Below, piece by piece: positions 455 through 4,430 of a stretch of DNA of 6,906 bases (its first letter is position 1; each line of letters begins with the position of its first letter). Origin of the DNA: a virus (lineage: Duplodnaviria > Heunggongvirae > Uroviricota > Caudoviricetes). The translations under genes were made by a program, and so were the position numbers. Under the pieces are notes generated by a model that was given only the letters and a program-made list of their open reading frames with translations, had not been told where the DNA came from and searched no databases. The stretch lies in the IMG/VR virus record IMGVR_UViG_648276671_000005, one strand, 5' to 3'.

Positions 455-998
455 TTACTTGTCTTTATCCGGCTGAAACTTATCAGGCACATTTCCGGTA
501 GTTTCCATCAGATAATCGGACAGCATTCGCGGGATGTTTTCATCAAGTTTTGTGCATGCGTTACAGGCTCTGACAACTTCTTTTTTCAGGCCATCCAGCA
601 TGACGGGGGTCATCTGTGGGAAGCTCCTTTGCATAGTAAGCGGGCAGGCTGTCCATGATTGATGAAATCTGACTCGCCAGTTTTGAAAGCGCGTACATGC
701 AAAACTCTGTATCAATCACGTCACCGCGATCGCGCTCGTTTTTAAGTTCCTGCGCCTCCGCCTGTGCTGTCAGTAATCTGATCCTGACTCGTAAGAGTTC
801 ATCATCATCAATCTCGCCTTTGTCGTTTGTAAGCTGGCTAATTGCATTGTTAACCCTATTGTCTATCACGCTGGCAACATCATAAAACGCCTCACGGCCT
901 TTACGTTCAATGGGAGTCACTCCCCACTTGTCGAATGCTGTAGCACTTACCCGGCAGCTTTGCGCCATGGTTTTTTTGTTCATCAGGTGCGATTTCAT
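455..998 (-). pseudogene. Lambda Nu1-like terminase small subunit (terS), interrupted by a +1 frameshift at a C5 run (G5 on plus strand, 605-609)
   Basis: ORF 561..1001 (N-terminal part) contains LTAQAEAQELKNERDRGDVIDTEFCMYALSKLASQISSIMDSLP, matching lambda Nu1 [45 protein letters not shown]. ORF 455..715 in the +1 frame contains MLDGLKKEVVRACNACTKLDENIPRMLSDYLMETTG, matching the Nu1 C-terminus FLKRDIIKAMNKAAALDELIPGLLSEYIEQSG. Removing one C from the run GACCCCCGTCATG joins them into an approximately 178-aa protein (Nu1 is 181 aa). Start taken at ATG 996-998 (MKSHLMNKK...); ATG at 983 is an alternative. Could be a real inactivation or a homopolymer sequencing error. Confidence 0.75.
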
Positions 999-1120
999 CA
1001 ATATCCCAACTTGGTCAAGGTTTCAGGTTGGTGTGTTGGTGTTATCTTTCCCTTTTTATTCATGGAGATAGAGCAAACAACAAAACCACCACCACCACCC
1101 TGAAAAAGCTCATAAATAGC

Positions 1121-1151
1121 GAAAAACCGCGAGGTCGCCGCCCCGTAACGG
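1121..1151. other. Lambda-type cos site (cosN core; 12-nt cohesive-end sequence GGGCGGCGACCT at 1132-1143 on the minus strand)
   Basis: Minus strand reads TTACGGGGCGGCGACCTCGCGGTTTTTCGCTATTTATGA, near-identical to the lambda cosN region GGGCGGCGACCTCGCGGGTTTTCGCTATTTATGAAAA as I recall it. It lies about 135 bp upstream of the Nu1-like gene, as in lambda where cosB separates cosN from Nu1. Confidence 0.75.
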
Positions 1152-1175: not shown

Positions 1176-1198
1176 AAAAAAAGCCGGATTTCTCCGGC
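1176..1198 (-). terminator. Rho-independent terminator after the capsid operon
   Basis: Minus strand: GCCGGA-GAAA-TCCGGC followed by TTTTTTT (A7 at 1176-1182 on plus strand), starting 7 nt past the stop of the 137-aa gene. Confidence 0.7.
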
Positions 1199-1204
1199 CT
1201 TGTC

Positions 1205-1618
1205 TCAGATGGTTTTCAGTATGCGATCGATGTCGCCATCATCGCCCGGGTTTCTGCCAGCGTATGCCATACCAGCTGATACGGCTTTCGGGCTGTGCAT
1301 GTCCATAAAGTTTTCAAAGGCTGCGGTAAGCTCTGGTGCAACCTTCTGGCGTTCCTGCTCTATGGTCATGCTAAGGATGCTTTTAGCCGTACCAACATCG
1401 ATACAAGGCACGTTTGCCATTGCACGTAACAGCGGCTGATAGTCGCCAGATTCATCAAGCGCCATAATCGCATCAGAGCGCGGCTTGTCCTTCTCTTCCA
1501 GGCTGTTAAGTTGATATACGGCCTCGTAGGTTGATAAACCTCTGTCAGCCATTGCCCGCGCTTCGGCCTTAAATTTACTCGCCAGCGGTAGCGTCATGAT
1601 GCTTTCATTCGTTGCCAT
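1205..1618 (-). CDS. Hypothetical protein (137 aa), last gene of the capsid operon
   Basis: ORF-track ORF with SD GAGGGA 5 nt before the ATG (complement of 1619-1630), 12-nt gap after the gpD-like gene, terminator directly downstream. No family recognised by eye; no obvious match to lambda FI. Confidence 0.65.
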   Translation of the reverse strand: MATNESIMTLPLASKFKAEARAMADRGLSTYEAVYQLNSLEEKDKPRSDAIMALDESGDYQPLLRAMANVPCIDVGTAKSILSMTIEQERQKVAPELTAAFENFMDMHSPKAVSAGMAYAGRNPGDDGDIDRILKTI

Positions 1619-1630
1619 CGTTCCCTCTGC

Positions 1631-1966
1631 TTATCGGGCCAGTGGCTGAACGGATACGCCAGAACCCGCAAAGGCGGCGCATTTTTTCGCATCGGTGTCG
1701 ACGCTCTCAGGCCAGTTAACGGCGGCGATATTAAATATCCCCGTCTTATAGCACTGTGCTGATTTCTGCGTCGACGTGTCAACGGGGTACGAGGTCAGAT
1801 AAACAGCCTTGCCAGATTCCTGACCATCCCACGGCTTAAACTCGCCATTGTCCGCCAGCATCAGCGGGGTAAATTCCTGAATAACTCCAGCATCAGCGGC
1901 AAAATGTACCAGCGTCGTGGATACCTGCTGACTGCCTGCAAATAACTCAATGTATGGAGTGTTCAT
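1631..1966 (-). CDS. Head decoration protein, lambda gpD-like (111 aa)
   Basis: TPLMLADNGEFKPWDGQESGKAVYLTSYPVDTSTQKSAQCYKTGIFNIAAVNWPESVDTDAKKCAAFAGSGVSV aligns with lambda gpD [75 protein letters not shown]. Length matches gpD (110 aa). SD GGGGGA upstream. Confidence 0.8.
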   Translation of the reverse strand: MNTPYIELFAGSQQVSTTLVHFAADAGVIQEFTPLMLADNGEFKPWDGQESGKAVYLTSYPVDTSTQKSAQCYKTGIFNIAAVNWPESVDTDAKKCAAFAGSGVSVQPLAR

Positions 1967-1977
1967 AGAATCCCCCG

Positions 1978-3033
1978 TTAAGCAATTTTGACGGTAACAA
2001 ATTTGCGAATATCTGCCGGTACCGGCTGCGGTGCGCTGTGCGTCTGCACGTACTCAATCGCCGGATCGCCATCCTCAATCCAGTTTTTCGGGTAGTACAT
2101 GTTTTGCGTTGCGCCAGTTCTTACCGCTTCCGGATCCATAATCGCACCATAGGCCACCAGCCCTTTATTGTTAGTGTTGCCCAGGACAAGCAAATCAGGC
2201 TCAAGGAAATATTTTTCGGTGCCATCGCTGTCGGTGTATTTGCCGGAATAGACGATAAGGGCCAGATCACCCAGATAGCCTTTAAAGCTCACCACTTCGC
2301 CCAGGTTTTTACAGGCCAGCTCTGCGGCGGATTCTGAACCACGGGAAAGATCGTACAGTTCACGGAATTTTTTAAAGCTGCGTAACGTGCGCCATACCTC
2401 AGCGCCCATAATCATGACGTTGGCGGGGCAACCAGCCTGATCGGTGTATAGTTCGATGTCATAGATTGGATCGTGTGTTTCCTTATCTGCCTCAGACCAC
2501 TTTTTGCCCGATCCCTGCGTAATGATGTTTTTAGTCGGGATTTTCCAGTCGATTTCGTATCTATTTATTCCTTCGCCCTCAATGATGTTTTTTCCGGTCG
2601 TGACCGCATTCACCGCCAGCCATTCTATGCGAGCTTTAATAGCGTTTACCTGGCGGCGCATGTTGCCAGTAATCAGGCGCATACGGCGATAAGTTGGATC
2701 GTTAAGCTGTGCCGGATCTTCTCCAGCCATGCGCATGATGGTTTTTGATGGATCGATTTCGTGTTTTGGTTTCATGTAGCCAGGGCGGATAGTGCTTGTT
2801 TCGTACCCTTTATCGCGCTGAACCTGACTCCCCACCATAGGCGAACAAAAAGCCGACATGGTGACTTCTTCAATATCCAGGGTATCTAACATGATGTCCT
2901 GCGTGTTGAAGGTTGCCACGTTCGGGAAAAACAGCGACGTAAACAGCGGACTGAATTTAAATTCCGAAATATCCCCACGATTCAGGTACGCGAAAAGCTG
3001 GTTAGTGTTAAGTGCCGTTGCTTTGCCTGTCAT
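1978..3033 (-). CDS. Major capsid protein, lambda gpE family (351 aa)
   Basis: Co-linear similarity to lambda gpE across the whole length: FKFSPLF vs FKFDPLF; RPGYMKPKHEI vs TPGYVKPKHEV; EDPAQLNDPTYRRMR vs EDPQNLADPAYRRRR; NIITQGSGKKWSEADKETHDP vs NNITQGSGTEWSKRDKSTYDP; VSFKGYLGDLALIVYSGKY vs VSYKGMYGDVAIVVYSGQY; VLGNTNNKGLVAYG vs VLGNTQARGLRTYG; YPKNWIEDGDPAIEY vs YPKNWVTTGDPAREF. gpE is 341 aa. Confidence 0.9.
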   Translation of the reverse strand: MTGKATALNTNQLFAYLNRGDISEFKFSPLFTSLFFPNVATFNTQDIMLDTLDIEEVTMSAFCSPMVGSQVQRDKGYETSTIRPGYMKPKHEIDPSKTIMRMAGEDPAQLNDPTYRRMRLITGNMRRQVNAIKARIEWLAVNAVTTGKNIIEGEGINRYEIDWKIPTKNIITQGSGKKWSEADKETHDPIYDIELYTDQAGCPANVMIMGAEVWRTLRSFKKFRELYDLSRGSESAAELACKNLGEVVSFKGYLGDLALIVYSGKYTDSDGTEKYFLEPDLLVLGNTNNKGLVAYGAIMDPEAVRTGATQNMYYPKNWIEDGDPAIEYVQTHSAPQPVPADIRKFVTVKIA

Positions 3034-3239
3034 TATTCACCCCCATGAGTCTGATTCATGCCCAGCGCCGCGCGTAAATAGGCGCGTACCTGCCAGCCTG
3101 TTGACGGCTCAACCATCGCCAGCGGCTCAAGTCCTGCCGCAATGCCTGCTTTTACGTTCTGCTGGTGGCGTTCCTTGAGCGCCTCCACGATGTCTGGGCT
3201 TATGTAAACTGTCACCCCGCCTTTTTTCTCTTCTGCCAT
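3033..3239 (-). CDS. Small hypothetical protein (68 aa from ATG at 3239; 79 aa if the GTG at 3272 is used), translationally coupled to the capsid gene
   Basis: Its stop overlaps the gpE-like start as TAATG (3031-3035). The ORF-track start at 3272 is a GTG inside the palindrome; the internal ATG at 3237-3239 (MAEEKKGG...) has a GAGGAA SD upstream and is preferred. No recognisable family. Confidence 0.5.
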   Translation of the reverse strand: MAEEKKGGVTVYISPDIVEALKERHQQNVKAGIAAGLEPLAMVEPSTGWQVRAYLRAALGMNQTHGGE

Positions 3240-3266
3240 AGTCGGAAATTCCTCTTTGACGTTAAA

Positions 3267-3298
3267 AATCACAACTGGATGTTCATCCAGTTGTGATT
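3267..3298. promoter_or_regulatory. 32-bp perfect palindrome (15-bp arms, 2-bp centre): candidate operator or 5'-leader hairpin for the capsid operon
   Basis: AATCACAACTGGATG-TT-CATCCAGTTGTGATT; arms are exact reverse complements, checked base by base. Directly abuts and overlaps the putative -10 element and lies about 30-60 bp upstream of the first capsid-operon start codon. Confidence 0.6.
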
Positions 3299-3323
3299 AT
3301 AATCATGATTTCATTTTACGCAA
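3296..3323 (-). promoter_or_regulatory. Putative sigma70-type promoter for the capsid operon
   Basis: Minus strand: -35 TTGCGT (complement of 3318-3323), 16-nt spacer, -10 TATAAT (complement of 3296-3301); the palindrome begins at the -10 and covers the predicted start-site region. Sequence pattern only. Confidence 0.35.
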
Positions 3324-3408
3324 TAATATTGAGTTGTATTGCAAATTGTGAAATGATTTCCGGCAACAGTAGTCACCATACTGTTAGATAAAAGCCTCAT
3401 ATGCAAAA

Positions 3409-3445: not shown

Positions 3446-3452
3446 GGGGCAT

Positions 3453-3474
3453 AAAAAAGCCGGACTTCTCCGGC
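3453..3474 (-). terminator. Rho-independent terminator after the ssb operon
   Basis: Minus strand: GCCGGA-GAAG-TCCGGC followed by TTTTTT, 17 nt past the ssb stop. Nearly identical to the hairpin at 1176-1198 (one loop difference). Confidence 0.7.
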
Positions 3475-3490: not shown

Positions 3491-3913
3491 TTAAAACGGT
3501 ATGTTATCCCCGTACGGATCATCGTTACCCGCCTGTTGTTTTGCCCTGTTCAGTGCGTCAGTAGCCTGCCCTTGCTGGCCTTTTTTGCCGCCCGGTCGCG
3601 CCGTTCTCGCACTGATTACGCTGTCTGCGATAACCTGCCAGCCCTGCCGCGTTTCGCCGTTCTGGCCTGTCCACTGGCTTACCTGCATGTTACCCGCCAC
3701 GCTCACCAGTTCGCCTTTGTGGTGTTTTGCCAGCGCATCGGCCTGTCTGCCAAACGCCAGGACGGATAACCACATCGTCGCCGTTCCGTCATCTGCCTGG
3801 CTGCACGGAAGGGGGACCGCCATACTAGCCATCGTCATTTGTGTACCCTTGCTGGTGGTCTTTAACTGCGGGTCAGCCACCAGCCGCCCGTAAGCCGCTA
3901 TCTGTGCTGTCAT
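3491..3913 (-). CDS. ssb: Single-stranded DNA-binding protein (SSB), 140 aa
   Basis: OB-fold region WLSVLAFGRQADALAKHHKGELVSVAGNMQVSQWTGQNGETRQGWQVIADSV resembles E. coli SSB [52 protein letters not shown]. Gly/Gln-rich linker and acidic C-terminal tail DDPYGDNIPF (compare SSB DFDDDIPF). Confidence 0.85.
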   Translation of the reverse strand: MTAQIAAYGRLVADPQLKTTSKGTQMTMASMAVPLPCSQADDGTATMWLSVLAFGRQADALAKHHKGELVSVAGNMQVSQWTGQNGETRQGWQVIADSVISARTARPGGKKGQQGQATDALNRAKQQAGNDDPYGDNIPF

Positions 3914-4202: not shown

Positions 4203-4430
4203 TCACCTGTTCACCTTTTGATATTTTCCATTTAAATTCATACTGTTAAGTGGTGAACAGTTTCACAAAAACTATTCACCAACTGTTCACCACTGTTCAC
4301 CCTTGAAGCTCAATAAACAACCAAAAAGGTGAACAGTGAATAGTTTGGTGAACAGTTCATAAATAACTGTTCACCCTATAATATACTGATATAAAAGATA
4401 TTTATGACAGGGTGAACAGTGGTGAACAGT
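4203..4430. repeat. Iteron array, putative origin of replication (nine perfect 9-mers GGTGAACAG/CTGTTCACC in both orientations)
   Basis: Forward GGTGAACAG at 4252-4260, 4328-4336, 4347-4355, 4411-4419, 4421-4429; reverse CTGTTCACC at 4207-4215, 4283-4291, 4293-4301, 4367-4375; plus degenerate copies (4273-4280, 4336-4344). Flanked by an AT-rich stretch at about 4170-4250. Starts immediately after the replication-protein stop. The core TGTTCACC is, as I recall, the P4 ori/crr type I iteron bound by P4 alpha. Confidence 0.8.

Follow-up and report, generated by a model that had tools for sequence, protein, structure and literature searches.

Identity of the element

Next to a cos site, a stretch of viral DNA of 6,906 nucleotides (the window) carries a compact group of genes that resemble phage head genes, and this raises the question to which element they belong and what they do for it. 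The first-pass annotation had placed them in a phage satellite, and this context was borne out. The window operon is 94% identical on the DNA level to c1498-c1501 of EcCICFT073, including the promoter, the leader hairpin, the terminator and cosN, and the CFT073 accessions AAN79967 and AAN79968 agree with the homologues of the 68-aa protein and of the capsid protein, respectively. EcCICFT073, from E. coli CFT073, serves as the model of the Gram-negative PICIs (Fillol-Salom et al. 2018, 2019); its helper-dependent induction, replication and high-frequency transfer are experimentally established (PMC6092414). The window island is integrated beside the chromosomal phoQ gene, in the same interval as EcCICFT073, and neither of the two lies inside a prophage. 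In a 96%-identical relative (L002), a distance of 11,278 bp separates the att repeats, which lie between phoQ and roxA.

The layout is also that of a PICI, i.e., unidirectional int, alpA and primase/rep genes with the origin 3' of the primase gene. The primase in the window matched D5_N/DUF5906/Pox_D5 (Pfam) and PHROG 864 (2e-192), and iterons are found at positions 4270-4430. The integrase and alpA-type HTH genes lie just outside the window span and were seen in L002. A helper-type cos is combined with an unrelated cosB and an adjoining Rpp/TerS-like gene, as is typical for PICIs. The island has the size (10-20 kb) and the specific att site of a small island and lacks most head genes; no tail or lysis genes were found in the island (layout as in L002), and portal, protease and large terminase genes were found neither in the window nor in the full islands of relatives. 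Immediately upstream of the operon, where the first-pass annotation had regarded portal, protease or scaffold genes as an argument against its own reading, no portal or protease gene is present; the neighbours are genes for an SSB and the primase upstream and a Nu1-like gene downstream. Rfam and tRNA scans revealed nothing, and NCBIfam models had no matches either. Because of the DNA identity, the agreeing accessions, the phoQ-side site and the island layout, it is essentially certain that we are dealing with the capsid morphogenesis operon of a Gram-negative PICI from the EcCICFT073 family. Such PICIs are helper-dependent phage satellites.

The operon is thus a rediscovered module that has already been described, and not a new system. 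"Capsid morphogenesis" is listed as a core PICI component by SatelliteFinder, and a capsid gene is present in 21 of the 29 reference Gram-negative PICIs (PMC10111431). The complete operon was detected in 594 of 5426 complete E. coli genomes (about 11%), and the same four genes are annotated (RefSeq features) under every match listed among these nearly 600 genomes.

Structure of the operon

The operon (3352-1176, minus strand) forms a transcription unit of its own, which consists of a putative promoter, a leader hairpin with a U-run, four genes and a terminator, and which is followed by a lambda-type cosN (Table 1). From the sequence, the operon had been proposed to stand alone, with a promoter/palindrome and a terminator belonging to it, adjacent to cos and with E preceding D, and the analysis agreed on each point: promoter-like hexamers, a stable leader fold, a terminator and an exact lambda cosN were detected, and the gene order of lambda and phage 21 is Nu3, D, E. 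The previously noted coupling of the 68-aa ORF to the capsid gene is also present, in the form of a TAATG stop/start overlap. The remaining two gene junctions are 11-12 nt long, and each contains a Shine-Dalgarno motif.

Table 1. Features of the capsid operon and its surroundings (positions in the window)
Feature	Position	Strand	Remarks
Tandem intrinsic terminators (two)	3473-3450 and 3442-3404	-	after the SSB gene; folds -15.9 and -23.5 kcal/mol, z = -4.7 and -4.0, U-run each
Putative promoter region	3296..3352	-	TTCACA-18-TATTAT at 3352-3323 (consensus scan); overlapping TTGCGT-16-TATAAT at 3323-3296 (by eye); conserved dyad ATTGC-N7-GMAAT
Leader palindrome/hairpin	3264..3297 (palindrome 3297-3268)	-	perfect 14-bp stem, 4-nt loop in the predicted fold, then TTTTT
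68-aa ORF	3033-3239	-	ATG start; extendable to GTG at 3272 (79 aa); annotated as 68 aa in RefSeq relatives
Capsid gene	1978-3033	-	351 aa
Decoration gene	1631-1966	-	111 aa
Fourth gene	1205-1618	-	137 aa
Operon terminator	1176..1199	-	GGCCGGAGAAATCCGGC then T7; surrounding 46-nt segment -18.6 kcal/mol, z = -3.5; identical in CFT073
cosN cohesive end	1132..1143 (1143-1132)	-	exact lambda sequence GGGCGGCGACCT
Nu1-like small-terminase homologue	561..1001	-	context, outside the operon; Pfam Phage_Nu1 3e-15; PHROG 57 3e-37

The tandem terminators are predicted to end the upstream SSB replication unit and to insulate the capsid operon from it. In L002, the first of them is a 23-nt direct repeat, with 96% identity, of the terminator 3' of the 137-aa gene. 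The motif RTTGC-N3-AAR-TGMAAT-N5-TTAWAAT occurred once upstream of each matched capsid operon and nowhere else in the 84 fetched loci, and in an alignment this motif is unchanged between E. coli, Salmonella and Pluralibacter. The Kosakonia locus (L054) did not appear among the loci with this motif.

The leader palindrome occurs only once in the window. Its fold has a free energy of -20.8 kcal/mol (z = -5.7), and none of 200 shuffled sequences was as good. Between the window and CFT073, a C:G pair of the stem is changed to T:A in a compensatory manner. The leaders of Salmonella and Pluralibacter have retained the hairpin and the U-run, with different stem sequences or positions, and the hairpin is weak in one metagenome locus (L010). 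The hairpin is probably terminator-like or operator-like, and it would gate expression either as an attenuator that needs antitermination or as an operator. A blastn comparison of the leader with 50,697 phage records showed no similarity to late promoters, and inspection by eye of the region just 3' of the Q gene of the CFT073 prophage revealed nothing obviously leader-like. Antitermination by a Q-type factor of the helper was considered and set aside as an idea only, as the leader has no likeness to phage late promoters.

Downstream of the operon, the flank of cosN matches the left ends of lambda and phage 21 for about 30 further bases (about 40 nt), and cosB is unrelated, which agrees with the published description of EcCICFT073. 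The Nu1-like gene has 30% identity to phage 21 TerS. In the window it is frameshifted by one extra C compared to L002 and L001. By position, it is the counterpart of Rpp.

Capsid and decoration proteins

The 351-aa protein matched the Pfam family Phage_cap_E (PF03864) over residues 26-349 with E=3e-52 and 178 bits, far above the gathering cut-off of 22.9 bits, and PHROG 29 ("major head protein") with 5e-110. Its identity to the capsid proteins of Gifsy-1 and of phage-21-type lambdoid phages is 46-47% over 96-98% of its length, and that to AAN79968 is 94% (dN/dS 0.10-0.14). The alignment with the E proteins of lambda and phage 21 is colinear from end to end, without loss of a domain, and the differences are confined to two 4-residue insertions near the N-terminus and one extra residue. 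By these matches the 351-aa protein, the homologue of c1499, is a full-length major capsid protein of the lambda gpE family. In two assemblies of Pluralibacter relatives the capsid gene is split.

The 111-aa protein, the homologue of c1500, matched the Pfam family HDPD (PF02924, lambda gpD) with 3e-18 and 66.3 bits (gathering cut-off 29.1 bits) and PHROG 49 with 1e-27. It is 45% identical to phage 21 D, has a dN/dS of 0.09-0.11, and is assigned on this basis to the head decoration proteins of the lambda gpD/phage 21 SHP family. Accordingly, the profile searches, which the first-pass annotation had named as a possible refutation, confirmed its gpE-like and gpD-like ORFs as members of the capsid and decoration families.

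The two small proteins

The remaining two proteins had both been described as unknown. This was upheld for the 68-aa protein, which has no homologue of known function, and had to be revised for the 137-aa protein, in which a homologue of Nu3 was recognised.

Alignment of the 137-aa protein with Nu3 proteins by hhalign yielded a probability of 96% (E=1.5e-9), and BLASTP aligned its residues 49-131 with residues 115-192 of phage 21 Nu3 (E=3e-10; 36% identity in the C-terminal part). It also matched PHROG 53, the protease/scaffold C-terminus, with E=1e-8, and in a tblastn search of the 50,697 phage records its sole matches were the C-termini of Nu3 or gpC of phage-21-type phages. The protein contains one Nu3 repeat and the FENFMDMHSP tail motif, and what it has in common with Nu3 is confined to the last repeat and the tail, while the N-terminus (IMxLPLASKF) and the C-terminus (IDRILKTI) are specific for the family. 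From these alignments the 137-aa protein, the homologue of c1501, is a shortened homologue of Nu3-type internal scaffolding proteins. This assignment is the addition of the present analysis; in the supplement of the EcCICFT073 paper c1501 is given as 137 aa (PMC6092414). Nu3 genes are read in the frame of the protease gene C and occupy its 3' part, whereas the 137-aa gene is free-standing 3' of D, in an island without a protease gene. The AF2 model is all-helical, with confident residues 1-90, a flexible tail and a terminal helix at 127-136. Searches with this model against PDB and BFVD gave nothing significant, and no Pfam or NCBIfam model matched the sequence. An exhaustive HMMER search of 1.84 billion representatives returned only nine proteins, including one divergent full-length relative and one Nu3-like protein. 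The dN/dS is 0.21-0.34.

It was also considered whether the fourth gene is Nu3-like in every genus. This was not the case: the proteins of Salmonella (68 aa) and Pluralibacter (77 aa) reached hhalign probabilities of about 1% or less. The fourth gene is therefore not conserved across genera, as these proteins have no detectable similarity to Nu3.

The 68-aa protein, with AAN79967.1 (c1498) as its CFT073 counterpart, matched PHROG 3255, which is annotated as unknown function, with E=1e-42. Its homologues are confined to PICIs of Enterobacteriaceae, and neither tblastn matches in the phage records nor sequence or profile matches in PDB were found. It is PICI-specific and may be a regulator or an assembly factor. 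The AF2 model has a beta-alpha-alpha topology (pLDDT 74), and Foldseek gave no match with an E-value below 4. The matches to the Pfam families RHH_1 (E=0.22) and BrnA (E=0.12) were both below threshold, so that only the topology of the model suggests a ribbon-helix-helix protein; the 68-aa protein is possibly a regulator of this kind. Identity with lambda gpW was rejected, because no alignment was obtained, and so was an origin as part of Nu3 (hhalign probability below 1%). The dN/dS is 0.21-0.30. The Kosakonia locus has no ORF of at least 55 aa at the position of the 68-aa gene.

Selection and relatives

Across all four genes, dN/dS was 0.09-0.34 in two comparisons, with dS of up to 0.35. Judged by these ratios, all four genes are under purifying selection, and a function appears to be maintained. 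The translational coupling and the leader are also kept across genera. In Salmonella (L008) the same module adjoins a fragment of helper gpA, and in the helper-embedded Kosakonia relative it lies inside a lambda-type E gene. Scans of genome contigs otherwise returned mostly lambda contamination and ordinary lambdoid prophages. The capsid, the decoration and the 137-aa protein are all closest to head genes of the phage-21 type, the type that is carried by the prophage beside the CFT073 island.

Possible function of the operon

The function of the operon has been addressed in published experiments with EcCICFT073. When lambda served as helper, only DNA of phage size was packaged (Fillol-Salom et al. 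2018, PMC6092414). Deletion of c1499 (capsid) or c1500 (decoration) changed neither the interference with lambda nor the transfer by the native helper (PMC6092414). When the post-ori genes were expressed singly from pBAD18, only c1503 (rppA) inhibited lambda (PMC6739421), and deletion of rppA brought the lambda plaque titres back nearly to the island-free level. The objection that the operon was disrupted in every published EcCICFT073 experiment (c1501::tetA or c1499::cat) was rejected, because the primers put tetA just 3' of the c1501 stop codon and left the four ORFs intact (supplement, PMC6092414); it applies only to the cat derivative. The Pasteurella PICI PmCI172 also encodes a capsid homologue, and it makes small capsids (PMC6092414).

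Enterobacteria exchange virulence and defence genes through PICIs at high frequency, and the operon is a core marker of SatelliteFinder, yet the published experiments gave no phenotype. With a gene for a Nu3-type scaffold the operon would be a shell-building kit and not a lone capsid homologue, which offers a concrete, testable hypothesis. Tentatively, with a probability of roughly 0.4, we propose that it encodes a matched set of capsid, decoration and scaffolding proteins, which assemble on the portal and the protease of the helper and are redundant with the helper capsids. The operon is an insulated cassette with terminators on both sides and with diverged homologues of E, D and Nu3 in this order, the first encoding a full-length capsid protein with the HK97 fold. 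After helper induction, the short scaffold may chaperone polymerisation of the island capsid protein on the helper portal and protease, and the island decoration protein may then lock the expanded shell. The helper terminase would fill the shell from the adjacent island cos; in relatives, an Rpp-type protein, whose gene follows directly downstream, redirects it to this site. The shells would probably be helper-sized, with about four copies of the 11.3-kb island making one lambdoid headful. As helper capsids could do the same job, the operon would be redundant in the laboratory, and this redundancy fits the published null phenotypes. It would matter when the supply of helper capsids is limiting, incompatible or interrupted, as in the helper-embedded relatives. 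The earlier idea of assembly on the portal and the scaffold of the helper would accordingly apply to the portal, which the island lacks, and not to the scaffold, of which the island encodes a homologue.

Several observations argue against such a kit. The null deletions of c1499 and c1500 (PMC6092414) would also be explained by a decaying module, the capsid gene is split in the two Pluralibacter assemblies, and the fourth gene is variable across genera. Neither of the small proteins gained support from structure searches, the Kosakonia module lacks both an ORF at the 68-aa position and a match to the leader motif, and the leader has no similarity to phage late promoters. It is, however, very unlikely that the operon is a non-functional relic of captured head genes that is passively carried, to which the split capsid gene, the variable fourth gene and the missing deletion phenotypes would also point. 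All four genes have low dN/dS values (0.09-0.34 at dS of up to 0.35), the four-gene set is present under every listed match among nearly 600 genomes, and coupling and leader are kept across genera.

The first-pass annotation had instead proposed capsid-size redirection by analogy with Ccm, which is the field's default guess. The island capsid protein and the short scaffold would then build small T=3 or T=4 shells, or force the helper protein into them, with room for one or two copies of the island but not for the helper genome. In line with this, the capsid homologue is accompanied by a shorter scaffold that has a helper-type C-terminal region and one repeat, compared to three in phage 21 Nu3. 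The two 4-residue insertions sit near the N-terminus of the capsid protein, and the 11.3-kb island would amount to about 80-90% of a T=3 lambdoid shell (own scaling estimate). CpmB reportedly competes with the scaffold of phage 80alpha, and the short island scaffold may, by analogy, resemble this behaviour. PmCI172 is a precedent for a capsid homologue together with small capsids (PMC6092414). However, the number of scaffold repeats alone predicts nothing, because lambda Nu3 has a single repeat and yet forms T=7 shells. In addition, the tetA-marked EcCICFT073 with its four intact ORFs gave only phage-sized DNA with lambda, and deletion of the capsid or the decoration gene of this near-identical operon did not relieve interference (PMC6092414). 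Redirection as originally stated is not supported by these results, the small-capsid idea is weakened as tested with lambda as helper, and we regard it as unlikely. Poisoning, i.e., co-assembly of the island capsid, scaffold or decoration proteins with helper proteins that spoils the helper heads, has little probability. Homologues with about 45% identity can cross-bind, and phage 21 SHP reportedly decorates lambda heads; capsid assembly is a common target of satellites (reviewed in PMC6893505). However, single over-expression of the post-ori genes did not reduce lambda plaques, unlike that of rppA (PMC6739421), and interference was not relieved by deletion of c1499 or c1500, whereas deletion of rppA restored the titres. 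It is quite unlikely that the module is a spare part that replaces interrupted or missing helper head genes, chiefly for PICIs embedded in helper late genes. The modules beside the gpA fragment in Salmonella and inside the E gene in Kosakonia would fit, and the Williams laboratory has described 201 elements of this kind within E and suggested that they serve as a backup (PMC10111431). On the other hand, the window island and EcCICFT073 lie beside phoQ, outside of a prophage, and the interrupted helper gene is restored by excision anyway. With 46% identity to helper E and with its own D and scaffold, the module looks self-sufficient and not like a drop-in for a single helper protein.

The matched shell-building set could also be taken further. 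EcCICFT073-type PICIs might be "half-way" capsid-forming satellites, which build their own shells on stolen helper portal and protease, perhaps smaller ones with the right (phage-21-type or other) helper, and whose operon is turned on when a factor encoded by the helper reads through the leader terminator. This is improbable at present. If true, such islands would bridge the classical PICIs, which use helper proteins only, and the cf-PICIs, which steal tails only, and the intact operon in about 11% of the complete E. coli genomes would be accounted for.

Comparison with known systems

The closest known system is EcCICFT073, which has the four genes in common with the window operon, in the same order and with the same lengths (68, 351, 111 and 137 aa). 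The two islands diverge 3' of cosN, where CFT073 encodes RppA (144 aa) and the window contains the frameshifted Nu1-like gene, and upstream, where a PerC-family gene is present in CFT073 and the SSB gene in the window island. With lambda and phage 21 the operon shares homologues of E (43-47% identity), D (45%) and the C-terminal part of Nu3 (36%), and the window likewise has a lambda-type cosN that adjoins a Nu1-like gene. In contrast to these phages, the genes run in the opposite order (E, D, Nu3'), there are no genes for portal, protease, large terminase, W, FI and FII, and an additional 68-aa gene without a phage homologue is present. Phage 21 Nu3 is nested in the protease gene and has three repeats, whereas the window scaffold is free-standing and has one.

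The E. coli satellite P4 carries, next to cos, genes for the decoration protein Psu and the size-determining scaffold Sid. In this case, however, the proteins are unrelated to those of the window, Sid is a scaffold of the external type, and P4 lacks a capsid gene. The cf-PICI EcCIEDL933 shares with the window-type island the int-alpA-primase left half and an own HK97-fold capsid protein (Alqurainy et al. 2023). The gene set of the cf-PICIs further includes portal, protease, head-tail connectors, HNH, TerS and TerL, and they make small capsids, whereas these genes are absent here; own portal, protease, head-tail connector and large terminase genes were found neither in the window nor in full relative islands. 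In the work of de Sousa et al. (2023), the capsid genes of PICIs and those of cf-PICIs fall into separate clades. Ccm of SaPIbov5 and CpmB of SaPI1 are similar by analogy only, i.e., as a satellite capsid homologue and a helper-related satellite scaffold, respectively. They remodel the helper capsid protein into small shells, while the EcCICFT073 operon gave none with lambda (PMC6092414), and in the window operon capsid, scaffold and decoration proteins are encoded together.

The capsid operon and its island

According to the ORF listing, all substantial genes of the 6906-base window lie on the minus strand. The first-pass annotation had proposed a stand-alone capsid operon of four ORFs beside cos, and every particular of this proposal was borne out by the ORFs, the Pfam and PHROG matches, the terminators and the cohesive-end sequence. 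The four ORFs lie within coordinates 1205-3298; the genes for the 68-aa and the 351-aa protein share a TAATG overlap, and the remaining two junctions are 11-12 nt long. About 40 nt of the flank of the cohesive-end sequence are the same as in lambda and phage 21 before the sequences diverge. A 23-nt direct repeat (96% identical in the relative island L002) is present in the terminator after SSB (3450-3473) and in that after the 137-aa gene (1176-1199). Because the same terminator repeat stands at both ends, the capsid operon is a bracketed cassette, and the repeat could be a substrate for exchange or loss of the module.

Features of the window in minus-strand order, and att repeats of the relative island L002
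Feature	Coordinates	Strand	Remarks
109-aa ORF, then DUF4222 protein		minus	first genes, 5' to 3'
D5-type primase, 610 aa	4443-6275	minus
Iterons AACTGTTCACC x3 and ACAGTGGTGA x2.5	4430-4270 (4270-4301 and 4407-4430)	minus	AT-rich gap just 3' of primase gene
81-aa ORF, then SSB gene	SSB 3491-3913	minus
Two strong terminators	3473-3404	minus	set operon apart from SSB
68-aa protein	3239-3033	minus	PICI-specific
Capsid protein, 351 aa	3033-1978	minus	Pfam Phage_cap_E, E=3e-52; PHROG 29, 5e-110
Decoration protein, 111 aa	1966-1631	minus	Pfam HDPD (lambda gpD), 3e-18
Nu3-type scaffold homologue, 137 aa	1618-1205	minus
Operon-ending terminator	1199-1176	minus
Exact lambda cohesive-end sequence	1143-1132	minus	thirty-two bases past operon terminator
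Nu1-like gene	561-1001	minus	after lambda-type cos site
Last ORF		minus	incomplete, crosses left window end
att direct repeats	L002 8352-8409 and 19630-19687

Megablast matched the window to E. coli chromosomes. In strain CFIAFB20120266 (L002) the island is complete. It lies between phoQ and roxA, its flanking att repeats are spaced by 11,278 bp, and its order is integrase, HTH (alpA-type), Icd-like, DUF4222, primase, SSB, the four genes, cos, a small-terminase-like gene and a further ORF. At 45 kb, four copies of the island correspond to one lambdoid headful, in agreement with the published finding that packaged DNA is of phage size. In E. coli CFT073 this interval beside phoQ is occupied by EcCICFT073, the model phage-inducible chromosomal island (PICI) of Gram-negative bacteria (PMC6092414). 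The operon of the window and that of CFT073 are 94% identical in DNA, from promoter and leader through the coding regions to the terminator and cosN, and divergence starts only after cosN. Exact look-up identified the CFT073 68-aa protein as AAN79967 (c1498 by consecutive numbering) and the 351-aa protein as AAN79968 (c1499); c1501 is given as 137 aa in the supplement of the 2018 paper (PMC6092414). Of 5426 complete E. coli genomes, 594 have the 2.1-kb operon in full, most of them with 90-95% identity, and among the matches listed the annotation beneath each showed the same four genes. The region is thus securely assigned as an EcCICFT073-type PICI capsid operon, a module already described. 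In E. coli A33 (L001, NZ_CP028742.1) the island is present in three tandem head-to-tail copies with many frameshifted ORFs; either the array is genuine or the long-read assembly is of low quality.

The fourth gene encodes a scaffold homologue

The 137-aa protein had been put forward as an unknown and as a candidate assembly or size-determination factor; it is no longer an unknown, being identified as a homologue of Nu3, the lambda-type scaffolding protein. In a tblastn search of 50,697 phage records its sole matches were the Nu3 scaffolds of phage-21-type lambdoids, i.e., the C-terminal part of protease gene C. BLASTP against phage 21 Nu3 gave E=3e-10, the C-terminal columns of the PHROG protease/scaffold family matched at 1e-8, and profile-profile comparison with Nu3 gave a probability of 96% (E=1.5e-9). 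Phage 21 Nu3 has a roughly 40-residue repeat three times, followed by FEHFMANHSP, whereas the island protein has a single repeat followed by FENFMDMHSP, enclosed by invariant termini (N-terminal IMxLPLASKF, C-terminal IDRILKTI). The AF2 model is all-helical, with residues 1-90 confident and a floppy tail with a terminal helix; fold searches with it were uninformative. As a Nu3 homologue, the protein completes an island set of capsid, decoration and scaffold proteins.

The 68-aa protein is limited to these PICI islands. A tblastn search of the phage records found no homologue, and its resemblance to ribbon-helix-helix proteins was below threshold.

A conserved leader precedes the operon

The leader is strikingly conserved among E. 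coli, Salmonella and Pluralibacter islands and consists, in order, of an ATTTCA box, a TTGC...TGCAAT dyad, an invariant TTATAAT, a hairpin, a U-run and a Shine-Dalgarno sequence. The composite motif occurred once upstream of each matched capsid operon and nowhere else in 84 loci; a blastn search of the 50,697 phage records found no similarity to phage late promoters. The hairpin is perfect in the window (z = -5.7), differs from that of CFT073 by a compensatory C:G to T:A pair, and is rebuilt in other genera from different sequence or at a different distance. The conserved motif, the compensatory pair and the rebuilding argue for a functional hairpin, which may be a leader terminator that requires read-through or an operator overlapping the start site.

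Relatives in other genera

The fourth gene is variable between genera, and its Salmonella and Pluralibacter versions had no detectable likeness to Nu3. Two independent assemblies of Pluralibacter gergoviae (L006/L007) have the capsid gene split into ORFs of 179 and 170 aa and the genes for the 68-aa and decoration proteins intact; this island also has a weak Lambda_tail_I-like gene. Relatives of the capsid module occur in helper-embedded PICIs of Salmonella (L008/L009) and Kosakonia sp. S29 (L054); the Salmonella one (L008) adjoins a gpA ATPase fragment, and the Kosakonia one lies inside a lambda-type E gene, the 3' part of which follows the island. At this Kosakonia locus no ORF of at least 55 aa was found at the position of the 68-aa gene, and the leader motif was unmatched. 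A scan of genome contigs (L011-L084) gave many matches that had one and the same identity to the query, 43%. They came from tiny contigs of low coverage in unrelated taxa (Bacillus relatives, Actinobacteria, Bacteroidetes) and have the look of lambda DNA that contaminates public assemblies.

Further features of the window

At 156-211 the first two codons (Met-Thr) of the last ORF are expanded into a perfect hexamer array, (ATGACC)x9.3; in the CFT073 and O170:H18 relatives this ORF has a single hexamer copy and starts with MTEAE... As each unit contains an ATG, the repeat number could alter translation initiation as well as the N-terminus. Downstream of cos, the Nu1-like small-terminase homologue, which by position we take to be the Rpp counterpart, has one extra C in a C-run (about 640-650) compared with two relatives. 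The frameshift replaces the last ~45 residues, and the normal C-terminus carries on in ORF 455-715; either the extra C is a sequencing error or this packaging-redirection gene is inactivated. The gap 3' of the primase gene is the reported location of PICI replication origins.

Possible function of the operon

The first-pass annotation was largely right. In Fillol-Salom et al. (2018), c1499 is designated as a capsid protein and c1500 as a head decoration protein. The same study had already drawn the analogy to Ccm on which the suggestion of small capsids was based. Its test of EcCICFT073, the one published, was negative, as the DNA packaged with lambda as helper was all of phage size (PMC6092414). 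Interference persisted when c1499 or c1500 was deleted, transfer by the native helper was unchanged, and for c1499 the authors state that no phenotype could be found (PMC6092414). That all tested islands had a broken operon was considered and rejected; the c1501::tetA primers put the cassette just after the stop codon. A capsid gene is present in 21 of 29 reference Gram-negative PICIs and is dispensable for transfer (PMC10111431), and "capsid morphogenesis" is a core PICI component in SatelliteFinder, thought to modify hijacked capsids (de Sousa et al. 2023). No later work on the function of the module was found in the literature searched.

The scaffold assignment, the selection evidence and the conserved leader are the new elements here, and they sharpen the question of what the operon does. 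Our preferred reading, held with a probability of about 0.4, is a matched shell-building set, which would assemble on the portal and protease of the helper and would be filled from the cos site next to the operon. This set would be redundant with helper capsids, and such redundancy would fit the null phenotypes together with the strong purifying selection. Size redirection might be confined to other helpers, but this is unlikely in view of the phage-sized DNA with lambda and the deletions without effect. It is rather doubtful that the genes are spare parts for helper-embedded lifestyles, a use to which the Salmonella and Kosakonia relatives would point. Poisoning of helper heads is improbable: when each post-ori gene was expressed from pBAD18, c1503 (rppA) alone inhibited lambda (PMC6739421, 2019). 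A non-functional relic is hardly to be expected either, as all four genes are under purifying selection (dN/dS 0.09-0.34, dS up to 0.35).

CFT073 carries near EcCICFT073, at icd, a lambdoid prophage with phage-21-type head genes, and the capsid, decoration and scaffold proteins of the island are all closest to the head genes of this phage type. The order of the three island genes is opposite to that in the phages. The island capsid protein has its full length, is colinear with E of lambda and phage 21, and differs from them in length only by one extra residue and by two insertions of 4 residues each near the N-terminus.
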